DNA of 64,000 nucleotides from Psilocybe cubensis (lineage: Eukaryota). The stretch is taken from positions 1 through 64,000 of the forward strand of contig CM039001.1 in the NCBI GenBank assembly GCA_017499595.2, read 5' to 3'. Positions 532-12,966 of the stretch are shown here, piece after piece. The notes under the pieces are model-generated. The model saw only the letters and a list, made by a program, of their open reading frames with translations. It had not been told where the DNA came from and searched no databases. Positions within the stretch are counted from its first letter, which is position 1; each line of letters begins with the position of its first letter. Made by a program: the position numbers and the translations under genes.

Positions 532-1527
532 TAGCCACTGAAGAGTCTATAAAGACGAAAGGGCTGGTTGTTGGGATCCCCCAACAGCCCTCAAGTACTC
601 GTCCTCTCCCAAACTCCTGCCGCTTGTGCCTTCCCAACTCATCCGGGAGCCCTTTCGTCACTGATCTTGCCCTTGACTCGGGGACGTTTCATCGACATGT
701 TGGCTGCCTCACGGCAAGCGGGGCCCTTTTTCTTTCACTCGCTCACGCCTTCTATGTTGGGTTACGGAGGTCATACAAACTCGTTTTAGTCTAGCTGCGG
801 GGATATCCAGCTATGATGACTTTGTAATTCGAGGGCGCGCAGTTCTTCAATGGGTATGGACATCAGGTGAGAGTACACTGGGGGTTGTCAGGACCAGCTC
901 TGCTGGATACGCTCCTGGCAAGTCGGTTGCAGCCGGCGACACTACCGAATTGCTGGGACGTCCTAAAGCTTGTGGGTACCGCCGACCGCTGGAAACAGCC
1001 TAGGCACCGGTGGCGACCGGGTATGGTAACAATCCCCAAGATTCAGCGAAAGCTGGAATGGATAATCAGCAGCGAATCCGTAACGGTCACGCCGACGGAA
1101 GCGTTCAACGACTAGGTGGTAGTGGGGTCTTCGGATCTTAAGATATAGTCTTGGGAGTGGGGAAACCCACATCTGGTATCTAAACCGCGCCTCGCTGCTT
1201 ACGAGGACGGCCCGAAGTCCAGAACCGCTTAAAACGCGGGTGACCCGGCCTCCCCTTAGTAAAGGGAGTTAACACAAGGATGGACAAATAGTTCGTCGCC
1301 GGAAATGAACCTGTGGCTGTAATGGCTGATGTGGCGCCCCTTGGTAAAGGGCTTAAAGGGTATTAGCCTGCCATGTCCAATGGCATGAGAGTGTCCCTTG
1401 GTAAAGGACTTAATAGGCAATAGCCTGCTCTTTTGTCATGAGCGGTATGTAGTGATCGTTTGCCTGTACGGTAGCGCCCATTGCTTGCACTGGTCCACGC
1501 CCGTAAAAAATCACGAGCCGCTGGCTA
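532..1527 (+). ncRNA. Type I hammerhead ribozyme interrupted by a group I intron (copy 1)
   Basis: TAGCCA-CTGAAGA-GTCT(ATAA)AGAC-GAAA-GGGCTG...CAGCCC-T | 929-nt insert | C-TGGCTA. Removing 592-1520 restores the intact sequence seen at 5878-5944. Confidence 0.92.
592..1520 (+). ncRNA. Group I self-splicing intron, IC1-like, 929 nt (copy 1)
   Basis: Follows U591 and ends in G1520. Core elements: P AATTGCTGGGA 948-958, Q AATCAGCAGC 1064-1073, R GTTCAACGACTA 1103-1114, S AAGATATAGTC 1140-1150. P3 CACTACC/GGTAGTG, P7 GACTA/TAGTC, P8 with UUCG loop, P9 GTGGG-GAAA-CCCAC. IGS GGGGTTGT 881-888 pairs with exon ACAGCCCT, giving a U.G pair at the splice site. Confidence 0.93.
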
Positions 1528-1631: not shown

Positions 1632-4600
1632 ATGTCATCTCAATACTCTGCTGCTTTCTCTCGTGCCATGTCCCCCACCCTGGACGCACTCACCCAGGCC
1701 GTCGTCAACAACACCGTTTTCGGCGTCAACGATGAAGCAGGCCGCCATAACGCTCTGATCGACGAGCTGGCCACTGTGGTCATCAAAAAAATAGCTGAGT
1801 GCCGCTCCGTTGACCAAGTCATAGACTGCGTCTTTTTTGACTATCGTGCTGCCCTTAGGGAGTTTCTCCTCAACCTCGCATCGTGGTGCGATAAGAGGGA
1901 AACAGTCAAGGCTAGCCTCGAGCGCCTTGAATCTGCCGTTAGCGCAGGCAACACGCCCAATCGCCTTAAGGTGAAGGCACCCGAGTTCCAACTTACGAAG
2001 GAATTCGCGGATGCCGGGTCAGCGGAGGCTCTTCGAGTCTCCACTACGTTCTCTACCGCTCGTGACGCCTTCCAAAAGGCAATTAACGACGGCGCCATTC
2101 AGGCGAAAAAGGACGAGCTGACTTTTTGGGATGATAAATGCGCACTCAACTCTTGCTACGAAGCTGCTGCCCTCATCGTTAAGGCAACTTACGATGATCG
2201 CAAATCCAGCTACAAGCTCCCTGTTTTCTCTACAGATAACAAGGGAGTTCGACGTATAGCAGAGTGGGTAGTGTCTCCGCAAAAGAAAGCCGAATGCAGT
2301 GCGCTGCAAACCATACTGCCGGCGATCTTTTCTCACATCAAACAAATTGTCAACATGCGCCACCGCGCTTTGGCAATTAAGATTGAGAAAAAGCGGACGA
2401 CTGCGGCAACAGCCGATGTCGAGATGGCCGACGCGACCAAACCAGGTCCGTCGATTCAATCCCTTATTGATAAGGGCTTGAATGCACGTCTCAAGAAGCT
2501 CAACCTTGGATCTGTGGGCAAGAAGGCAAGTTTTCGTAACCCTTCACCCATAATTCTGGATACTAATTACTACTCTAATTACCCAGACTTTGTCTGGCCA
2601 GAATTCGTCCAAGGCTCCTCAACCTCAGGCCAAGAAAGCTGGCCCTTCGAAACCCAAGTCGTCGTCGACGCCTTCGCAACGCAAGCCTCAAACCAAGGCT
2701 TCCAACAAGGTCGACAACAAGAAGAAAGGGAAGGGGAGAGCTCCCGTCAAGAACGATCCAAAGGGAAAGGGAAAGGCAAGAGCCTAGATGCGCGGTCTAA
2801 TGTAGTACCTTTTACGTCGGTGAGACCCGCCTTCCCCAACTCTATTCCTGACGATATACTCACCATGACTAAAACAGACGCAGTTTCTTTCGTACACTTA
2901 CATACTCCAATATCATTCTTGTTGGCTGGCCAGTATCGTAGTAGTGTACATTGTAGTCCTGGTGTTTCTGTCCCTGTTGATGTAGCAAACGATCTCTCTC
3001 TCGGACTTAATTATATGTTTTTCACTCTGCCTTCTAAAAGTCTGATCATGCAAGCATGGAATGATTTCCAACGAAGAATAAGATGGCGTATCTATTTTTT
3101 GTTTAAGGAAGGCATGAATAAACCTTTTGATCCAGATTATGGAGTAAGCTCAAAAAAGAAAGAGAAACCTCCTGTATTACCGCAATATATGGAACTTGGC
3201 CTTTCGATGGGACGTCGGTACGTGCAACGCACGATCGCAAGTATCCCGGAAGAAGCCCTTACGGAGATGCGAAAGCACGCGTTCTCTCCTAAAAGGGACA
3301 AGATCCGTAAGTTTCTTATCGATAACAACTATGTTATTACGATGACAGATAAGAATCTTGGCCTCGCGGTGTCTGAACGCGACTGGATATTAAGGAATGA
3401 GCTCAATCTTCTTGAAGATGAACGTAATTACGAAGAGTTAGAATTCGAAGTTGCGCAAGAAGTTATGAAGAGCAAAATGATTCAGATGCAAACGCTCGCA
3501 CGTACTGTCGAAGATGAACATCTGTTTCTATTTGAACTTGGGTTGTCTCGATTCTTTCTATCGAATGTACCGGAAGACGGATCATCGTTCAAGTATCCTC
3601 AATTTCATGGTATACCTAAAATCCACAAGAAACCTACTGGATTTAGGCCCATAATTCCGTGTCACTCTGTAGTATTTAATCCTGCAGCCAAGTTTGTATC
3701 AAAAGAGCTTAAGCCGATTATTAAATCGACTCCTTCAATCATACACGGAACGAAGGATCTCTTTACGAGATTAAGCCAATTGCGTATAGACTCCAAAAGA
3801 CAATGGTATTTTGTCACTGGAGATGTAGTTGCTTTCTATCCCAATATTCCGTTGGACTTGTGCATCGAAATCGTTTGTAGTATGTACGAGGAATGGTTAC
3901 TCAACGCTTCGGAAGAAAACACTGCATTAGCCCATATTAATCCAAATTCGTTAGAGAATAACTTGGTTAAATTGGGCATCTTTAAACGTGCTATCGAGAT
4001 TGGCAATACGCAATTGATAACACAACATGGGTCTAGATATTTTAGACAAAAAAATGGCCTCGCAATGGGCGTCGCGGATTCTCCGGACCTTGCTAACCTC
4101 TTTGGAGCCCATTTTGAAATAAAGTCAAAAATCTTAGACCACCCAAACGTGGCCTTCTATGGAAGGTACATCGACGATTGTTTCGCAATTGTTTACGCCG
4201 AGTCCGAAGCACTTGCACTTAATCTTATTAAAGAAACAATAAAGTTCGATGGTTGTGTTATCGAATGGGCTGTTTCCTCGTCGGGATGTCAATTTCTCGA
4301 TGCTTTCATATTCAAGGAGTCTGGAAAACTTCATTGGAAGCCTTTTGTCAAGACAGGAAACAACCGAGAACGAGTTCCATGGGTATCACATCATCCTTTG
4401 GACGTCAAACGTGGCGTCTACATTGGAGAGTTATCCAGGTTAGCCGTGCTATGTAGTACCAAGGAAATCTACATCGGAGCAATTAGAGACCTTAACGCTC
4501 TCTATTTGATGCGCGGTTATCCCGAAAACCTAGTCATATCTTGGTGTAAGAAGAATATACAAGAACGTTGGGAAAAGCGATTCGCTTTACGAGTCGCAGA

Positions 4601-5162
4601 GCACGACGAATCCATTCTTGTACTTAAAACCAGATTTGATCAGGTATGGAATTGGTTTTCAGCTGCTGAACTTGGAAAAACTGTTACCGAGTACTGGTCG
4701 GCATGGTATGAACATGCCGAGAAAGGTTTGTATAGTGCAGACTCGTCCAGACCCCTTATCAAACCAGATCCAAATTACGTTCACGACCTCGATGATGTTC
4801 GCCCGGAGCTGTTCACACAGATCCTCGTGGACGGAGAAACTGAGTTCGTACCGGATTTGAGGAAGATAGGACTACTCGGAAGTCGTTGGATAGTATCGCG
4901 AAAACGCAATACTAATCTTTTCGACCTTGCAAATGTGTGGAAGAAAACAGTCTTTCGTAAACTGGATGAAGACATCGCTGAAAAAGGTGGTGTTGTTCCC
5001 GAAACTCAAAACGTTAATGAAACTTATCATTCTGCTTTAGTTGAAGCTACTGAGCAGATAAGTATCGAAAGTGATAACGAGATAATACTTCATAGACGTT
5101 CAATCTCACAAGAGAGGGAACATCCAGAATTTGGCAGAATATCCAAATCTTACAACCGATGA
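1632..5162 (+). CDS. PLE (Coprina-like) ORF1-reverse transcriptase, 1176 aa
   Basis: Motifs FHGIPKIHK..FRPII, VTGDVVAFYPNI, QKNGLAMG, YGRYIDDCF, FLD and thumb-like SHHP..KRG. No C-terminal GIY-YIG. Confidence 0.95.
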   Translation: MSSQYSAAFSRAMSPTLDALTQAVVNNTVFGVNDEAGRHNALIDELATVVIKKIAECRSVDQVIDCVFFDYRAALREFLLNLASWCDKRETVKASLERLESAVSAGNTPNRLKVKAPEFQLTKEFADAGSAEALRVSTTFSTARDAFQKAINDGAIQAKKDELTFWDDKCALNSCYEAAALIVKATYDDRKSSYKLPVFSTDNKGVRRIAEWVVSPQKKAECSALQTILPAIFSHIKQIVNMRHRALAIKIEKKRTTAATADVEMADATKPGPSIQSLIDKGLNARLKKLNLGSVGKKASFRNPSPIILDTNYYSNYPDFVWPEFVQGSSTSGQESWPFETQVVVDAFATQASNQGFQQGRQQEEREGESSRQERSKGKGKGKSLDARSNVVPFTSVRPAFPNSIPDDILTMTKTDAVSFVHLHTPISFLLAGQYRSSVHCSPGVSVPVDVANDLSLGLNYMFFTLPSKSLIMQAWNDFQRRIRWRIYFLFKEGMNKPFDPDYGVSSKKKEKPPVLPQYMELGLSMGRRYVQRTIASIPEEALTEMRKHAFSPKRDKIRKFLIDNNYVITMTDKNLGLAVSERDWILRNELNLLEDERNYEELEFEVAQEVMKSKMIQMQTLARTVEDEHLFLFELGLSRFFLSNVPEDGSSFKYPQFHGIPKIHKKPTGFRPIIPCHSVVFNPAAKFVSKELKPIIKSTPSIIHGTKDLFTRLSQLRIDSKRQWYFVTGDVVAFYPNIPLDLCIEIVCSMYEEWLLNASEENTALAHINPNSLENNLVKLGIFKRAIEIGNTQLITQHGSRYFRQKNGLAMGVADSPDLANLFGAHFEIKSKILDHPNVAFYGRYIDDCFAIVYAESEALALNLIKETIKFDGCVIEWAVSSSGCQFLDAFIFKESGKLHWKPFVKTGNNRERVPWVSHHPLDVKRGVYIGELSRLAVLCSTKEIYIGAIRDLNALYLMRGYPENLVISWCKKNIQERWEKRFALRVAEHDESILVLKTRFDQVWNWFSAAELGKTVTEYWSAWYEHAEKGLYSADSSRPLIKPDPNYVHDLDDVRPELFTQILVDGETEFVPDLRKIGLLGSRWIVSRKRNTNLFDLANVWKKTVFRKLDEDIAEKGGVVPETQNVNETYHSALVEATEQISIESDNEIILHRRSISQEREHPEFGRISKSYNR
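2526..2586 (+). other. Putative 61-nt GC-AG spliceosomal intron in the retroelement ORF (present in all full-length copies)
   Basis: AAG|GCAAGT donor, CTAAT branch-like motifs, CCCAG| acceptor. Splicing joins codon 298 in frame to the Lys-rich 2590-2787 ORF. Confidence 0.72.
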
Positions 5163-6012
5163 AAAGAATACTAGCGCTTAAGGCGTAAAGCATTAGAAAA
5201 AAACCCTAACCGTAAGTATTCCTTGCTATAAAGTAACAAACATCTACTTACAAGCAACACATTGGATTGAATAGCTAAACCTAAACCTAAACCCTAAACC
5301 CTAAACCCTAAACCCTAACCTAACCCCAACCCTAAGCTAACTAAGTCTAACCTTAGTAGGAAGTAAGGTAGGCGTGTGAACTTCCGAACGGCATGTGATT
5401 GTGAAGGGCCGGATCTAATTTAGTACATGGGAAAAGTTACTTAGTACTTCGGGAAAAGTTCCTTAGTACCGTGGAAACATTTTTGATGGACCGGATCATG
5501 AACTGTCCAATTAAGATTCACAACAATCAATCATTCTATTGTTTGATTGTTAGGTAAGGACCCAGGTAAGTTATTTATACTCTAGACATGTGAATATTCC
5601 CATGTCGCGGTTACTCGGAGCCACGTAACCAGAGTAATCTATATCCATGTGATTCACATCACAGTCAATAACCCACGATGTCAAAGAACAAAAGTGTTGG
5701 ATCCACTTTTGACAGGTTACCATGTGCCACATCGACCCGTGACACTCTGTTCATCAGAGACCTGTCTAACTTGACGATAAACATTGACAGATTTGTGATA
5801 GTCGGTAAGATACATGACAGCTGCGCAGCATCACTTCACGCGCTGTCATCGGATGTCTAGAACATTCCTTCTAAGAATAGCCACTGAAGAGTCTATAAAG
5901 ACGAAAGGGCTGGTTGTTGGGATCCCCCAACAGCCCTCTGGCTACTTTCCATTTAACTCCCAGTTTAAACTAGTCGCTCGCACCTCGCTTCGCTCGGTGC
6001 TCGCTCCCCCCC
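5163..6012 (+). repeat. 3' UTR / pseudo-LTR of the element
   Basis: Same block follows every ORF. It contains an internal degenerate telomeric tract (~5275-5352), hairpins and a hammerhead, and ends in CGCTCCCCCCCTAAACCC. Confidence 0.9.
5878..5944 (+). ncRNA. Intact type I hammerhead ribozyme
   Basis: Stem I TAGCCA/TGGCTA, core CTGAAGA and GAAA, stem II GTCT/AGAC, stem III GGGCTG/CAGCCC, cleavage triplet CUC. Confidence 0.93.
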
Positions 6013-6075
6013 TAAACCCTAAACCCTAAACCCTAAACCCTAAACCCTAAACCCTAAACCCTAAACCCTAAACCC
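6010..6075. repeat. Interstitial telomeric tract between elements
   Basis: About 9 perfect CCCTAAA units. Confidence 0.95.
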
Positions 6076-7958
6076 GTCAAAAATCTTAGACCACCCAAAC
6101 GTGGCCTTCTATGGAAGGTACATCGACGATTGTTTCGCAATTGTTTACGCCGAGTCCGAAGCACTTGCACTTAATCTTATTAAAGAAACAATAAAGTTCG
6201 ATGGTTGTGTTATCGAATGGGCTGTTTCCTCGTCGGGATGTCAATTTCTCGATGCTTTCATATTCAAGGAGTCTGGAAAACTTCATTGGAAGCCATTTGT
6301 CAAGACAGGAAACAACCGAGAACGAGTTCCATGGGTATCACATCATCCTTTGGACGTCAAACGTGGCGTCTACATTGGAGAGTTATCCAGGTTAGCCGTG
6401 CTATGTAGTACCAAGGAAATCTACATCGGAGCAATTAGAGACCTTAACGCTCTCTATTTGATGCGCGGTTATCCCGAAAACCTAGTCATGTCTTGGTGTA
6501 AGAAGAATATACAAGAACGTTGGGAAAAGCGATTCGCTTTACGAGTCGCAGAGCACGACGAATCCATTCTTGTACTTAAAACCAGATTTGATCAGGTATG
6601 GAATTGGTTTTCAGCTGCTGAACTTGGAAAAACTGTTACCGAGTACTGGTCGGCATGGTATGAACATGCCGAGAAAGGTTTGTATAGTGCAGACTCGTCC
6701 AGACCCCTTATCAAACCAGATCCAAATTACGTTCACGACCTCGATGATGTTCGCCCGGAGCTGTTCACACAGATCCTCGTGGACGGAGAAACTGAGTTCG
6801 TACCGGATTTGAGGAAGATAGGACTACTCGGAAGTCGTTGGATAGTATCGCGAAAACGCAATACTAATCTTTTCGACCTTGCAAATGTGTGGAAGAAAAC
6901 AGTCTTTCGTAAACTGGATGAAGACATCGCTGAAAAAGGTGGTGTTGTTCCCGAAACTCAAAACGTTAATGAAACTTATCATTCTGCTTTAGTTGAAGCT
7001 GCTGAACAGATAAGTATCGAAAGTGATAACGAGATAATACTTCATAGACGTTCAATCTCACAAGAGAGGGAACATCCAGAATTCGGCAGAATATCCAAAT
7101 CTTACAACCGATGAAAAGAATACTAGCGCGTAAGGCGTAAAGCATTAGAAAAAAACCCTAACCGTAAGTATTCCTTGCTACAAAGTAACAAACATCTACT
7201 TACAAGCAACACATTGGATTAAATAGCTAAACCTAAACCTAAACCCTAAACCCTAAACCCTAAGCCCTAACCTAACCCCAACCCTAAGCTAACTAAGTCT
7301 AACCTTAGTAGGAAGTAAGGTAGGCGTGTGAACTTCCGAAAGGCATGTGATTGTGAAGGGCCGGATCTAATTTAGTACATGGGAAAAGTTACTTAGTACC
7401 TCGGGAAAAGTTCCTTAGTACCGTGGAAACATTTTTGATGGACCGGATCATGAACTGTCCAATTAAGATTCACAACAATCAATCAATTGATTGTTAGGTA
7501 AGGACCCAGGTAAGCTATTTATACTCTTGACATGAGAATATTCCCATGTCACGGTTACTCGGAGCCACGTAACCAGAGTATTTTATATCCATGTGATTCA
7601 CATCACAGTCAATAACCCACGATGTCAAAGAACAAAAGTGTTGGATCCACTTTTGACAGGTTACCATGTGCCACATCGACCCGTGACACTCTGTTCATCA
7701 GAGATCTGTCTAACTTGACAATAAACATTGACAGATTTGTGATAGTCGGTAAGATACATGACAGCTGCGCAGCATCACTTCACGCGCTGTCATCGGATGT
7801 TCCAGAACATTCCTTCTAAGAATAGCCACTGAAGAGTCTATAAAGACGAAAGGGCTGGCTGCTGATAACAATCAACAGCCCTCTGGCCTTCTTTCCATTT
7901 AACTCACAGTTTAAACAAGTCGCTCGCACCTCGCTTCGCTCGGTGCTCGCTCCCCCCC
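6076..7958 (+). mobile_element. 5'-truncated PLE copy (RT C-terminal part 6076-7114 plus pLTR)
   Basis: Starts abruptly at GTCAAAAATC, just upstream of the YIDD motif, directly after telomeric repeats. Confidence 0.93.
7823..7887 (+). ncRNA. Intact hammerhead, stem III loop variant
   Basis: Same core. Stem III distal part reads GCTGCTGATAACAATCAA. Confidence 0.9.
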
Positions 7959-8014
7959 TAAACCCTAAACCCTAAAACCTAAACCCTAAACCCTAAACCC
8001 TAAACCCTAAACCC
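7956..8014. repeat. Interstitial telomeric tract
   Basis: CCCTAAA units including the AAAACCT variant also seen in the terminal tract. Confidence 0.95.
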
Positions 8015-8388
8015 AGGTAAGCTATTTATACTCTTGACATGAGAATATTCCCATGTCACGGTTACTCGGAGCCACGTAACCAGAGTATTTTATATCCATG
8101 TGATTCACATCACAGTCAATAACCCACGATGTCAAAGAACAAAAGTGTTGGATCCACTTTTGACAGGTTACCATGTGCCACATCGACCCGTGACACTCTG
8201 TTCATCAGAGACCTGTCTAACTTGACAATAAACATTGACAGATTTGTGATAGTCGGTAAGATACATGACAGCTGCGCAGCATCACTTCACGCGCTGTCAT
8301 CGGATGTCTAGAACATTCCTTCTAAGAATAGCCACTGAAGAGTCTATAAAGACGAAAGGGCTGGTTGTTGGGATCCCCCAACAGCCCT

Positions 8389-9317
8389 CAAGTACTCGTC
8401 CTCTCCCAAACTCCTGCCGCTTGTGCCTTCCCAACTCATCCGGGAGCCCTTTCGTCACTGATCTTGCCCTTGACTCGGGGACGTTTCATCGACATGTTGG
8501 CTGCCTCACGGCAAGCGGGGCCCTTTTTCTTTCACTCGCTCACGCCTTCTATGTTGGGTTACGGAGGTCATACAAACTCGTTTTAGTCTAGCTGCGGGGA
8601 TATCCAGCTATGATGACTTTGTAATTCGAGGGCGCGCAGTTCTTCAATGGGTATGGACATCAGGTGAGAGTACACTGGGGGTTGTCAGGACCAGCTCTGC
8701 TGGATACGCTCCTGGCAAGTCGGTTGCAGCCGGCGACACTACCGAATTGCTGGGACGTCCTAAAGCTTGTGGGTACCGCCGACCGCTGGAAACAGCCTAG
8801 GCACCGGTGGCGACCGGGTATGGTAACAATCCCCAAGATTCAGCGAAAGCTGGAATGGATAATCAGCAGCGAATCCGTAACGGTCACGCCGACGGAAGCG
8901 TTCAACGACTAGGTGGTAGTGGGGTCTTCGGATCTTAAGATATAGTCTTGGGAGTGGGGAAACCCACATCTGGTATCTAAACCGCGCCTCGCTGCTTACG
9001 AGGACGGCCCGAAGTCCAGAACCGCTTAAAACGCGGGTGACCCGGCCTCCCCTTAGTAAAGGGAGTTAACACAAGGATGGACAAATAGTTCGTCGCCGGA
9101 AATGAACCTGTGGCTGTAATGGCTGATGTGGCGCCCCTTGGTAAAGGGCTTAAAGGGTATTAGCCTGCCATGTCCAATGGCATGAGAGTGTCCCTTGGTA
9201 AAGGACTTAATAGGCAATAGCCTGCTCTTTTGTCATGAGCGGTATGTAGTGATCGTTTGCCTGTACGGTAGCGCCCATTGCTTGCACTGGTCCACGCCCG
9301 TAAAAAATCACGAGCCG
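8389..9317 (+). ncRNA. Group I intron, copy 2 (929 nt), interrupting the hammerhead at ~8329-9322
   Basis: Apparently identical to 592-1520, with the same CAGCCCT|...GAGCCG|CTGGC junctions. Confidence 0.93.
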
Positions 9318-9431
9318 CTGGCCTTCTTTCTATTTCAAACTCACAGTTTAAACTAGTCGCTCGCACCTCGCTTCGCTCGGTGCTCGCTCCCCCCCTAAAC
9401 CCAACGACTTTGCTATCACCCATCAGTTACC

Positions 9432-12400
9432 ATGTCATCCCAATACTCTGCTGCATTCTCTCGTGCCATGTCCCCTACCCTGGACGCACTCACCCAGGCC
9501 GTCGTCAACAACACTGTCTTCGGCGTCAACGATGAAGCAGGCCGCCATAACGCTCTTATCGACGAGCTGGCCACTGTGGTCATCAAAAAAATAGCTGAGT
9601 GCCGCTCCGTTGACCAAGTCATAGACTGCGTCTTTTTTGACTATCGTGCTGCCCTCAGGGAGTTTCTCCTCAACCTCGCATCGTGGTGCGACAAGAGGGA
9701 AACAGTCAAGGCTAGCCTCGAGCGCCTTGAATCTGCCGTTAGCGCAGGCAACACGCCCAATCGCCTTAAGGTGAAGGCACCCGAGTTCCAACTTACGAAG
9801 GAATTCGCGGATGCCGGGTCAGCGGAGGCTCTTCGAGTCTCCACTACGTTCTCTTCCGCTCGTGATGCCTTCCAAAAGGCAATTAACGACGGCGCCGTTC
9901 AGGCGAAAAAGGACGAGCTGGCTTTTTGGGATGATAAATGCGCGCTCAACTCTTGCTACGAAGCTGCTGCCCTCATCGTTAAGGCAACTTACGATGATCG
10001 CAAATCCAGCTACAAGCTCCCTGTTTTCTCTACAGACAACAAGGGAGTTCGACGTATAGCAGAGTGGGTAGTGTCTCCGCAAAAGAAAGCCGAATGCAGT
10101 GCGCTGCAAACTATACTGCCGGCGATCTTTTCTCATATCAAACAGATTGTCAACATGCGCCACCGCGCCTTGGCAATTAAGATTGAGAAAAAGCGGACGA
10201 CTGCGGCAACAGCCGATGTCGAGATGGCCGATGCGACCAAACCAGGTCCATCGATTCAATCCCTTATTGATAAGGGCTTGAATGCACGTCTCAAAAAGCT
10301 CAACCTTGGATCTGTGGGCAAGAAGGCAAGTTTTCGTAACCCTTCACCCATAATTCTGGACACTAATTATTACTCTAATTACCCAGACTTTGTCTGGCCA
10401 GAATTCGTCCAAGGCTCCTCAACCTCAGGCCAGGAAAGCTGGCCCTTCGAAACCCAAGTCGTCGTCGACGCCTTCGCAGAGGAAGCCTCAAACCAAGGCT
10501 TCCAACAAGGTCGACAACAAGAAGAAAGGGAAGGGGAGAGCTCCCGTCAAGAACAACGATCCAAAGGGAAAGGGAAAGGCAAGAGCCTAGACGCGCGGTC
10601 TACTGTAGCATCATTTACGTCGGTGAGACCCGCCTTCCCCAACTCTATTCCTGACGATATACTCACCATGACTAAAACAGACGCAGTTTCTTTTGTACAC
10701 CTCAATACCCCGATTTCATTCTTATTGGCTGGCCAGTATAGATCTAGTGTACACTGTAGTCCTGGTGTTTCGGTCCCTGTTGATGTAGCAAATGATTTAT
10801 CTCTTGGACTCAATTATATGTTTTTTACACTGCCTTCTAAAAGTCTGATCATGCAAGCATGGAATGATTTTCAACGAAGAATAAGATGGCGTATCTATTT
10901 TTTGTTTAAAGAAGGCATGAATAAACCTTTCGATCCAGACTATGGAGTAAGCTCTAAAAAGAAAGAGAAACCTCCAATGTTACCCGCAATTTATGGAACT
11001 TGGCCTTTCAATGGGACGTCGGTACGTTATTAAAACGATCGCAAGTATCCCGGAAGAAGCCCTTAAAGAGATGCGAAAGCACGCGTTCTCTCCTAAAAGG
11101 GACAAGATCCAAAAGTTTCTTTTCGATAACAACTATGTTATTACGATGACAGATAAGAATCTTGGCCTCGCGGTGTCTGAACGCGACTGGATATTAAGGA
11201 ATGAGCTCAATCTTCTTGAAGATGAACGCAACTACGAAGAGTTAGAATTCGAAGTTGCGCAAGAAGTTATGAAGAGCAAAATGATTCAGATGCAAACTCT
11301 CGCACGTACCGTCGAAGATGAACATCTGTTTCTATTTGAACTTGGGTTGTCTCGATTCTTTCTATCGAATGTACCGGAAGACGGATCATCGTTCAAGTAT
11401 CCTCAATTTCATGGTATACCTAAAATCCACAAGAAACCTACTGGATTTAGGCCCATAATTCCGTGTCACTCTGTAGTATTTAATCCTGCAGCCAAGTTTG
11501 TATCAAAAGAGCTTAAGCCGATTATTAAATCGACTCCTTCAATCATTCACGGAACGAAGGATCTCTTTACGAGATTAAGCCAATTGCGTATAGACCCCAA
11601 ACGACAATGGTATTTTGTCACCGGGGATGTAGTTGCTTTCTATCCCAATATTCCGTTGGACTTGTGCATCGAAATCGTTTGTAATATGTACGAGGAATGG
11701 TTACTCAACGCTTCGGAAGAAAACACTGCATTAGCCCATATTAATCCAAATTCGTTAGAGAATAACTTGGTTAAATTGGGCATCTTTAAACGTGCTATCG
11801 AGATTGGCAATACGCAATTGATAACACAACATGGGTCTAGATATTTTAGACAAAAAAATGGCCTCGCAATGGGCGTCGCGGATTCTCCGGACCTTGCTAA
11901 CCTCTTTGGAGCCCATTTTGAAATAAAGTCAAAAATCTTAGACCACCCAAACGTGGCCTTCTATGGAAGGTACATCGACGATTGTTTCGCAATTGTTTAC
12001 GCCGAGTCCGAAGCACTTGCACTTAATCTTATTAAAGAAACAATAAAGTTCGATGGTTGTGTTATCGAATGGGCTGTTTCCTCGTCGGGATGTCAATTTC
12101 TCGATGCTTTCATATTCAAGGAGTCTGGAAAACTTCATTGGAAGCCATTTGTCAAGACAGGAAACAACCGAGAACGAGTTCCATGGGTATCACATCATCC
12201 TTTGGACGTCAAACGTGGCGTCTACATTGGAGAGTTATCCAGGTTAGCCGTGCTATGTAGTACCAAGGAAATCTACATCGGAGCAATTAGAGACCTTAAC
12301 GCTCTCTATTTGATGCGCGGTTATCCCGAAAACCTAGTCATGTCTTGGTGTAAGAAGAATATACAAGAACGTTGGGAAAAGCGATTCGCTTTACGAGTCG

Positions 12401-12966
12401 CAGAGCACGACGAATCCATTCTTGTACTTAAAACCAGATTTGATCAGGTATGGAATTGGTTTTCAGCTGCTGAACTTGGAAAGACTGTTACCGAGTACTG
12501 GTCGGCATGGTATGAACATGCCGAGAAAGGTCTGTATAGTGCAGACTCGTCCAGACCCCTTATCAAACCAGATCCAAATTACGTTCACGACCTCGATGAT
12601 GTTCGCCCGGAGCTGTTCACACAGATCCTCGTGGACGGAGAAACTGAGTTCGTACCGGATTTGAGGAAGATAGGACTACTCGGAAGTCGTTGGATAGTAT
12701 CGCGAAAGCGCAATACTAATCTTTTCGACCTTGCAAATGTGTGGAAGAAAACAGTCTTTCGTAAACTGGATGAAAACATCGCTGAAAAAGGTGGTGTTGT
12801 TCCCGAAACTCAAAACGTTAATGAAACTTATCATTCTGCTCTAGTTGAAGCTGCTGAACAGATAAGTATCGAAAGTGATAACGAGATAATACTTCATAGA
12901 CGTTCAATCTCACAAGAGAGGGAACATCCAGAATTCGGCAGAATATCCAAATCTTACAACCGATGA
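9432..12966 (+). pseudogene. PLE ORF1-RT copy with a +1 frameshift near 10983-10985
   Basis: TTACCCGCAA versus TTACCGCAA in intact copies. Split into 533-aa and 657-aa ORFs. Could be a sequencing error. Confidence 0.85.

Follow-up and report, generated by a model that had tools for sequence, protein, structure and literature searches.

Organization of the telomeric array

The window, i.e. the whole stretch of DNA that was analysed, comprises the first 64,000 nucleotides of contig CM039001.1 of Psilocybe cubensis (assembly GCA_017499595.2), read 5' to 3' on the forward strand. Telomere repeats at the contig end are followed by an array of head-to-tail elements, each with an open reading frame (ORF) of about 1176 amino acids (starts at 1632, 9432, 14594, 19711 and 24120) and separated from one another by short telomere-repeat tracts. 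Every flanking repeat carries one hammerhead ribozyme; the telomeric array has ten of them, and 2 of the 10 are split by a group I intron.

1-216, + strand: telomere repeats (CCCTAA)n at the contig end, read from the sequence
1632-5162, + strand: ORF of the host element, a probable reverse transcriptase of 1176 aa, with 99% identity to a named protein and a weak match to RVT_1

The host ORF has 99% identity to a protein named 'Reverse transcriptase domain-containing protein' of Psilocybe cubensis, for which the families PF00078, PF28514 and PF26215 are precomputed. Compared directly with the ORF, RVT_1 gave a weak match (16.4 bits, E=0.0077) that lies below the Pfam cut-off of 29.6. A Pfam scan of the full 1176-aa host protein returned no family even at E<=10, the Pfam scans found no endonuclease family (GIY-YIG) in the ORF, and a PDB sequence search with it gave 0 matches. 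The motifs PKIHK and YIDD, which we take to be marks of a reverse transcriptase, were recognized by eye. Relatives of the host ORF at E<=1e-5 numbered 326 among 7998 candidates scored; they include proteins of 60-74% identity, and some are located on metagenome contigs. The element is telomeric, carries reverse-complement telomere repeats and an adjacent hammerhead, and has no GIY-YIG domain, which is the layout of the Athena/Coprina elements. Since a probable endonuclease-less reverse transcriptase lies here at a chromosome end together with telomere repeats and a flanking hammerhead, we read the element, by its layout, as Athena/Coprina-like, i.e. as a telomere-attached Penelope-like retroelement.

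The hammerhead ribozymes

528-591, + strand: 5' half of a type I hammerhead, recognized from core and architecture and from intron-free copies
about 529-537, 5' strand of stem I; 538-544, CUGAAGA; 545-548/553-556, stem II
557-560, GAAA; 561-590, stem III; 591, U16.1
554-565, + strand: target 12-mer GACGAAAGGGCU, spanning stem II (3' strand), the GAAA core and stem III (its first 5 nt)
566-589, + strand: alternative-register hairpin of stem III, in which 566-575 pairs with 580-589, from folding
1521-1532, + strand: 3' half of the hammerhead, with C17 at 1521, cleavage 3' of C17 and then the 3' strand of stem I (UGGCUACUUUC), from intron-free copies

The hammerhead motif consists, in this order, of a stem I strand, CUGAAGA, a 4-bp stem II, GAAA, a long stem III, U-C and the return strand of stem I. 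The core elements CUGAAGA and GAAA, stems I-III and the C-U-C triplet were found in all ten copies. The sequence GACGAAAGGGCT (554-565) occurs 10 times on the + strand of the window, always within a hammerhead motif, and this target 12-mer is the same in 10/10 copies while variation is seen in the distal part of stem III and in stem I. Over the full length of the RAGATH-1-hammerhead model, the intron-free copy at 5859-5943 scored 29.1 bits (E=0.0033), which does not reach the gathering score of 56.3, and the Hammerhead_3 model gave 19.5 bits vs a gathering score of 48.5; the hammerhead assignment thus rests on core and architecture, with scores below the Rfam gathering thresholds. When the canonical three-stem fold was enforced, its energy was -27.2 kcal/mol vs -29.9 kcal/mol for the minimum free energy (MFE) structure, i.e. 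2.7 above.

Stem III has two registers, the one of the hammerhead (560-566/585-591) and a second one (566-575/580-589). The stem III variants GGTTGTTGGG...CCCAACAGCC and GGCTGCTGAT...ATCAACAGCC appear, by eye, to be changed on both sides at 574/581 and 575/580, and these paired changes fit the distal part of the 566-575/580-589 hairpin.

A group I intron within the hammerhead

592-1520, + strand: group I intron, 929 nt, without an ORF; boundaries from intron-free paralogues and from DNA contigs joining 591 to 1521
584-600, + strand: 5' strand of P1, consisting of exon ACAGCCCU (584-591) and intron CA-A-GUACUC
601-870, + strand: P1-loop (L1) insertion of 270 nt between the P1 strands; it contains the 12-mer and has no homology elsewhere in the window
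648-659, + strand: intron 12-mer AGCCCUUUCGUC, antisense to 554-565, duplex of -20.8 kcal/mol
871-888, + strand: 3' strand of P1, with the internal guide sequence GGGGUUGU at 881-888; it lies where the Rfam match starts
876-1172, + strand: catalytic core of the intron (P2-P9), matching RF00028 (Intron_gpI) with 70.9 bits (gathering score 50) over model positions 1-253 of 253
1173-1520, + strand: 3' extension of the intron up to the terminal G1520, long and with hairpin-like motifs that recur, from sequence and folds
8351-9317, + strand: second intron copy, with the target at 8351-8362, the intron at 8389-9317 and the 12-mer at 8445-8456

The intron is inserted between U16.1 and C17, one base before the hammerhead cleavage site, so that the 5' exon ends in U591, the intron in G1520, and the 3' exon starts with C1521. 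Both copies score above the gathering threshold of RF00028 (876-1172 and 8673-8969), and by class membership the intron is a predicted self-splicing group I intron. Note that the joined form (591-1521) also exists as DNA, so RNA reads across this junction would by themselves be no proof of splicing. We found no homing endonuclease or remnant of one within the intron, the frames being just short stop-to-stop ones.

The preliminary description of this DNA had proposed that the exon end pairs with the guide sequence, and this is borne out: ACAGCCCU (584-591) is complementary to GGGGUUGU (881-888), and the pairing extends into the intron. The resulting P1 (584-600/871-888) has 16 bp and a predicted stability of -22.3 kcal/mol; in its intron part, GUACUC pairs with GAGUAC and CA with UG. 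The U591-G881 wobble lies within P1 and the intron has a terminal G, as is the case at group I splice sites. Because the two strands of P1 are 270 nt apart, 601-870 can be regarded as inserted into the P1 loop. No convincing P10 pairing was recognized by eye for the bases with which the 3' exon begins. A small hairpin in the 3' exon, 16 nt beyond the splice site, has a loop that complements the guide region (1537-1547 vs 877-887, 11 bp including G-U). One stem III variant ends in CAGCTCT instead of CAGCCCT, a change that would weaken the pairing with the guide sequence. In the 3' extension, at 1250-1430, a motif of about 36 nt (CCCTTGGTAAAGG.CTTAA...AGCCTGC) is present two to three times, as judged by eye.

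A 12-base complement to the hammerhead core

The feature that drew attention to the locus is a match between the P1-loop insertion and the hammerhead: 648-659 had been described as the perfect reverse complement of 554-565, and the match is indeed exact (AGCCCTTTCGTC vs GACGAAAGGGCT). The exon segment was said to cover the GAAA core together with the 5' strand of stem III. This is right for GAAA (557-560) and for 561-565, which belong to stem III, but 554-556 are the 3' strand of stem II. Positions 553 and 660 (A/A) as well as 566 and 647 (G/G) are unable to pair, so the helix is exactly 12 bp long. The first six bases of the intron 12-mer (648-653) are the same as the exon end at 586-591 (AGCCCU). 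Any sequence able to pair with the 5' strand of stem III is bound to resemble the exon end, and the 12-mer can therefore also bind the guide sequence, with 6 bp.

When the intron was shuffled with dinucleotide composition preserved, a perfect complement of at least 12 nt to exon 520-591 was reached in 12 of 2000 shuffles, and a complementarity of 12 bases is thus unlikely to arise by chance (about 0.003-0.006). Outside the introns, 12 + strand 12-mers of the window complement the intron. Ten of them are the hammerhead copies and two lie elsewhere (47004 and 47473), and no 13-nt complement to the intron was found on the + strand of the window outside the introns. The fold of 545-668 is more stable than expected (z = -5.03, with none of 200 shuffles equally stable), a value that includes the hammerhead's own stem III. 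An RNAduplex comparison of the exon flanks with the intron gave as good a result in 304 of 500 shuffles; the duplexes were long and full of loops, and this energy test is uninformative. There is also a weaker complement to the core (554-564) in the 3' extension, at 1427-1437, with 11 bp including 2 G-U pairs. The run X10 is changed at 1427 and 1430 of this complement, which means that such matches can arise without constraint.

Predicted folding of the precursor

All folding reported here is nearest-neighbour thermodynamics, calculated without tertiary contacts or kinetics. On these terms the 12-mer helix is predicted to form on transcription. Of 21 transcript lengths from 660 nt upwards, 18 give it a mean pair probability of at least 0.94 (lower values are seen at 740, 950 and 1180 nt), and the helix is present in both the MFE and the centroid structure of 545-668. 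Before the 12-mer exists, the second register of stem III is preferred in the precursor, with a probability of 0.98-0.99 at 600-640 nt. With the helix formed, the 566-575/580-589 hairpin stacks on it to give a stack of 22 bp with U591 at the junction.

It had been suggested that this helix displaces stem III and thereby frees the 5' splice site for P1. The folding does not support the freeing of the splice site. The exon end is predicted not to become free; it re-pairs in the 566-575/580-589 register, and the unpaired probability of 582-588 is 0.0 at 4/4 lengths, irrespective of whether 648-659 is blocked. C590 and U591 are open in either case. The effect on P1 is more difficult to assess since the helix crosses P1 as a pseudoknot and the programs treat the two as exclusive. 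We used a proxy in which blocking both strands stands for the formed helix, and blocking 648-659 alone stands for a mutant. In this pseudoknot proxy the probability of the exon part of P1 was lower with the helix than with 648-659 blocked in all six ranges (0.52 vs 0.88, 0.12 vs 0.91, 0.45 vs 0.51, 0.36 vs 0.54, 0.41 vs 0.50 and 0.00 vs 0.05). In other words, alternative structures of the kind that a splicing switch would need do exist in silico, but the 12-mer raised the probability of P1 in none of the six ranges of the proxy. The estimated energies are -126.8 kcal/mol for P1 plus helix before any pseudoknot penalty, -119.1 kcal/mol for P1 alone and -117.1 kcal/mol for the helix alone, and from the sum (-126.8 vs -119.1) P1 and the helix could coexist. 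Taken as it stands, the lowering of P1 in 6/6 ranges means that the helix may be a harmless or even a harmful accident. We consider the helix itself credible on the folding evidence, while the direction in which it was proposed to act, i.e. the unlocking of ACAGCCCU, is probably wrong.

Copies in the window and in sequencing runs

The second intron copy of the window offers no independent support for the complementarity because it is identical: 166-1525 and the copy shifted by +7797 have 0 differences. Further copies were sought in 22 listed sequencing runs, 16 of which, from 7 studies, contain at least part of 520-1620; four of them (X8, X9, X10 and X11) were compared. The RNA runs among those listed contain next to none of the stretch. 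Intron sequence is present in 4/4 of the compared runs, and contigs joining 591 to 1521 were found in three of the four (X8, X9 and X10), from which it follows that the intron-free form exists as DNA in these three. A variant copy comes from X9, in which a contig of 232 nt over 542-764 differs at 607, 630, 665 and 686 and has TT inserted after 644; in all, it has 11 other letters and 9 gaps. Neither 554-565 nor 648-659 is changed among the differences listed for X9 (25 more rows and the contig ends lie outside this statement), and at this level of divergence chance alone would be expected to leave 12 bases unchanged. In X11, which covers 623-824, there is one T>C change whose position is unlisted, and X8 has almost no cover at 630-679. 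Overall, the intron copies compared (the two of the window and the contigs of 4 of the 22 runs) are near-identical, and no informative change is listed in either strand of the helix.

A metagenome scan with the 16-nt exon-intron junction found a hammerhead upstream in 0 of 119 loci among the matches listed. Two of these 119 loci, in which the match is extended to 20 nt, were considered as relatives and rejected as unrelated sequence.

Possible roles of the helix

We tentatively favour, at somewhat less than even confidence, the reading that the helix serves to anchor or mask the invariant core of the hammerhead and not to release the splice site, and that it would tether the 5' exon in cis or guide reverse splicing in trans. 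According to the folding models, the helix would form once 648-659 is transcribed and would remove the catalytic core of the hammerhead from play. It would stack on the alternative-register hairpin of stem III and so place U591 at the junction of the 22-bp stack. Acting in cis, it may keep the 5' exon tethered to the intron through both splicing steps, possibly with a delay of splicing, and may keep the half-hammerhead from adopting other folds. Acting in trans, the 12 bases would account for most of the affinity that the excised intron has for intron-free hammerhead RNAs. The 12-mer would then cover G12-A14 and block self-cleavage, 1 nt from the insertion site, and blocked cleavage would in turn favour reverse splicing into the retroelement RNA, which could be copied by the element's own reverse transcriptase. 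The estimates for binding in trans fit this role: after opening costs, the net value is -8.7 kcal/mol for the 12-mer on the intron-free hammerhead RNA, against +6.3 kcal/mol when the exon end is bound by just the guide sequence. Opening of the exon end of the intron-free target is estimated to cost 11.6 kcal/mol with the 12-mer site already open and 10.3 kcal/mol without. On this reading, the helix would form in vivo and would be under selection. The strongest version of the trans role would make the 12-mer a natural targeting arm, with which the excised intron seizes intron-free hammerhead cores, stops their cleavage and reverse-splices 1 nt upstream, whereupon the reverse transcriptase of the element writes the RNA into the chromosome end. 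We regard this extended scenario as improbable, even if it is the most far-reaching one.

The anchor or mask has to be weighed against an accident, i.e. a 12-mer that arose without selection in a fast-evolving peripheral insertion and that may well form a helix but has no role in splicing or mobility. This is a serious possibility, if short of an even one in our estimate. The shuffles do reach 12 nt now and then, two unrelated 12-mer complements exist in the window, and the match was picked out from a scan of the whole 64 kb. There is no covariation among the near-identical copies examined, the similar but weaker match at 1427-1437 is not conserved in X10, and blocking 648-659 did not prevent P1 in silico. 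What speaks against an accident is that the shuffle probability (about 0.006) already spans the whole intron vs the 72-nt exon flank, that the match falls on the sole segment that is fully invariant, functionally central and beside the splice site, and that L1 varies around the 12-mer and not within it among the differences listed.

The switch, in which GGGCU would be taken out of stem III by the helix, so that ACAGCCCU is released and P1 and forward splicing are promoted, draws on the direct competition of the 12-mer with the exon end for 561-565. The summed energy of the P1-plus-helix pseudoknot is favourable as well, and more base pairs are satisfied when helix and P1 are both formed than when the hammerhead stem III is formed and the guide is free. 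We nevertheless consider the switch unlikely, given that the exon end re-pairs at all four lengths, with or without the 12-mer, that P1 is lowered throughout the proxy, and that an open 12-mer site makes the exon end of the intron-free target costlier and not cheaper to open. It is also conceivable that the 12-mer is a remnant, captured in L1, of a hammerhead fragment in inverted orientation or of an exon-intron junction that had been duplicated. The identity of its first six bases with the exon end (AGCCCU) and a loose resemblance of 633-660 to 580-604 would suit such an origin, and inverted truncated copies are frequent in Penelope-like elements, according to the accessible text of PMC8557442. 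However, a blastn search of the intron against the rest of the window found nothing past the 12-mer (best extension 17/21, E=25), the alignment score of the presumed junction repeat (580-604 vs 633-660) was reached by 145 of 1000 shuffles, and no hammerhead was detected in 592-875 on either strand. A relic of this sort seems very improbable to us.

Comparison with known systems

It is useful to compare the arrangement with systems in which an exon hairpin or an additional duplex influences a group I intron. In the pre-rRNA of Tetrahymena, the 5' exon hairpin P(-1) competes with P1; a hairpin of this type sequesters the bases that pair with the guide, and the exon context sets the efficiency of splicing and reverse splicing. 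The locus resembles this situation in as much as a stable 5' exon hairpin sequesters the guide-pairing bases. Unlike P(-1), the competing hairpin is stem III of another ribozyme, it has two registers, and the intron carries a 12-nt complement to the adjoining exon.

To our knowledge, nuclear group I introns are known almost exclusively from rDNA, and we assume that the present intron resembles those of the Tetrahymena (IC1) type. It shares with them an Rfam match over the full length, a wobble pair (U-G) at the 5' splice site, a G as its last base and the absence of an ORF. It is different in that its host is the ribozyme of a retroelement, that the P1 loop has an insertion of 270 nt, that there is a 3' extension of about 350 nt, and that no convincing P10 was seen by eye. 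The roles of the P1 extension and of P10 in group I introns are treated in the accessible part of PMC7877785.

Engineered trans-splicing group I ribozymes provide a further parallel. An extra antisense duplex with the substrate raises their efficiency, and 8 bp are enough in one system, as stated in the portion of PMC6155759 available to us. As with the extended guide of these ribozymes, a duplex outside P1 would add affinity and could start annealing at an accessible site (PMC6155759, same portion). The differences concern origin and position: the duplex described here is natural, lies in a P1-loop insertion and is 5' of the splice site (3' in the engineered ones). Moreover, it would act in cis in the precursor, and a role in trans is our own extrapolation from the predicted stabilities.

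The host element can be compared to the Athena/Coprina Penelope-like elements, which the accessible text of PMC8557442 and PMC4209133 describes as endonuclease-less, telomere-attached and equipped with hammerheads. The features in common with what is given there are a reverse transcriptase ORF (here a probable one) at chromosome ends, reverse-complement telomere repeats and a fungal host, as well as flanking repeats that contain a type I hammerhead with a fold that is stable as a monomer. The accessible text of the two papers (PMC8557442, PMC4209133) makes no mention of a hammerhead interrupted by a group I intron, as found here. In our literature search, which had subscription journals outside its coverage, no account of a Penelope-like element or a hammerhead interrupted by a group I intron was found.

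How endonuclease-less nuclear group I introns reach new sites is an old question. Reverse splicing followed by reverse transcription is the favoured, unproven route of their spread. At this locus, such an intron interrupts a ribozyme that belongs to a retroelement copied via RNA, and the intron has in addition a 12-base match to the core of that ribozyme. The locus is unusual as a nuclear group I intron outside rDNA that splits the ribozyme of a telomeric retroelement, and it would be so even if the match were due to chance, in which case the 12-mer itself adds little. If the match is functional, the locus would be a compact and testable system for exon-intron tethering, for the control of one ribozyme by another (the hammerhead being able to cleave only once the intron is gone) and for intron homing at the RNA level. 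A targeting arm, if true, would amount to the natural spread of a group I intron by reverse splicing and a borrowed reverse transcriptase, with one ribozyme parasitising another. We point to the 12-nt helix as a good lead for experimental studies.

Arrangement of the intron-bearing elements

Some observations concern the array itself. The first two elements share an identical 5' flanking repeat and intron (158-1525 vs 7955-9322); they diverge from 1526, 5 nt past the 3' splice and cleavage site, and are about 95% identical downstream. Within each of these elements, the 5' and 3' hammerheads (the latter at 5900 and 13698) share the same 3'-exon variant, and the intron is present in the 5' one alone. 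The break in identity and the shared 3'-exon variants suggest, as far as can be read from the sequence, recombination or template switching at the hammerhead site. In the second intron-bearing element, the ORF (region 9432-12966) is split into two overlapping frames, 9432-11033 and 10993-12966, and is therefore probably frameshifted. The 3' ends of the elements reach the telomere repeats via an internal CCCTAAACCC, about 80 nt beyond the hammerhead cleavage site (6006-6075, 5280-5330), and a 5'-truncated element copy begins directly at 6076.
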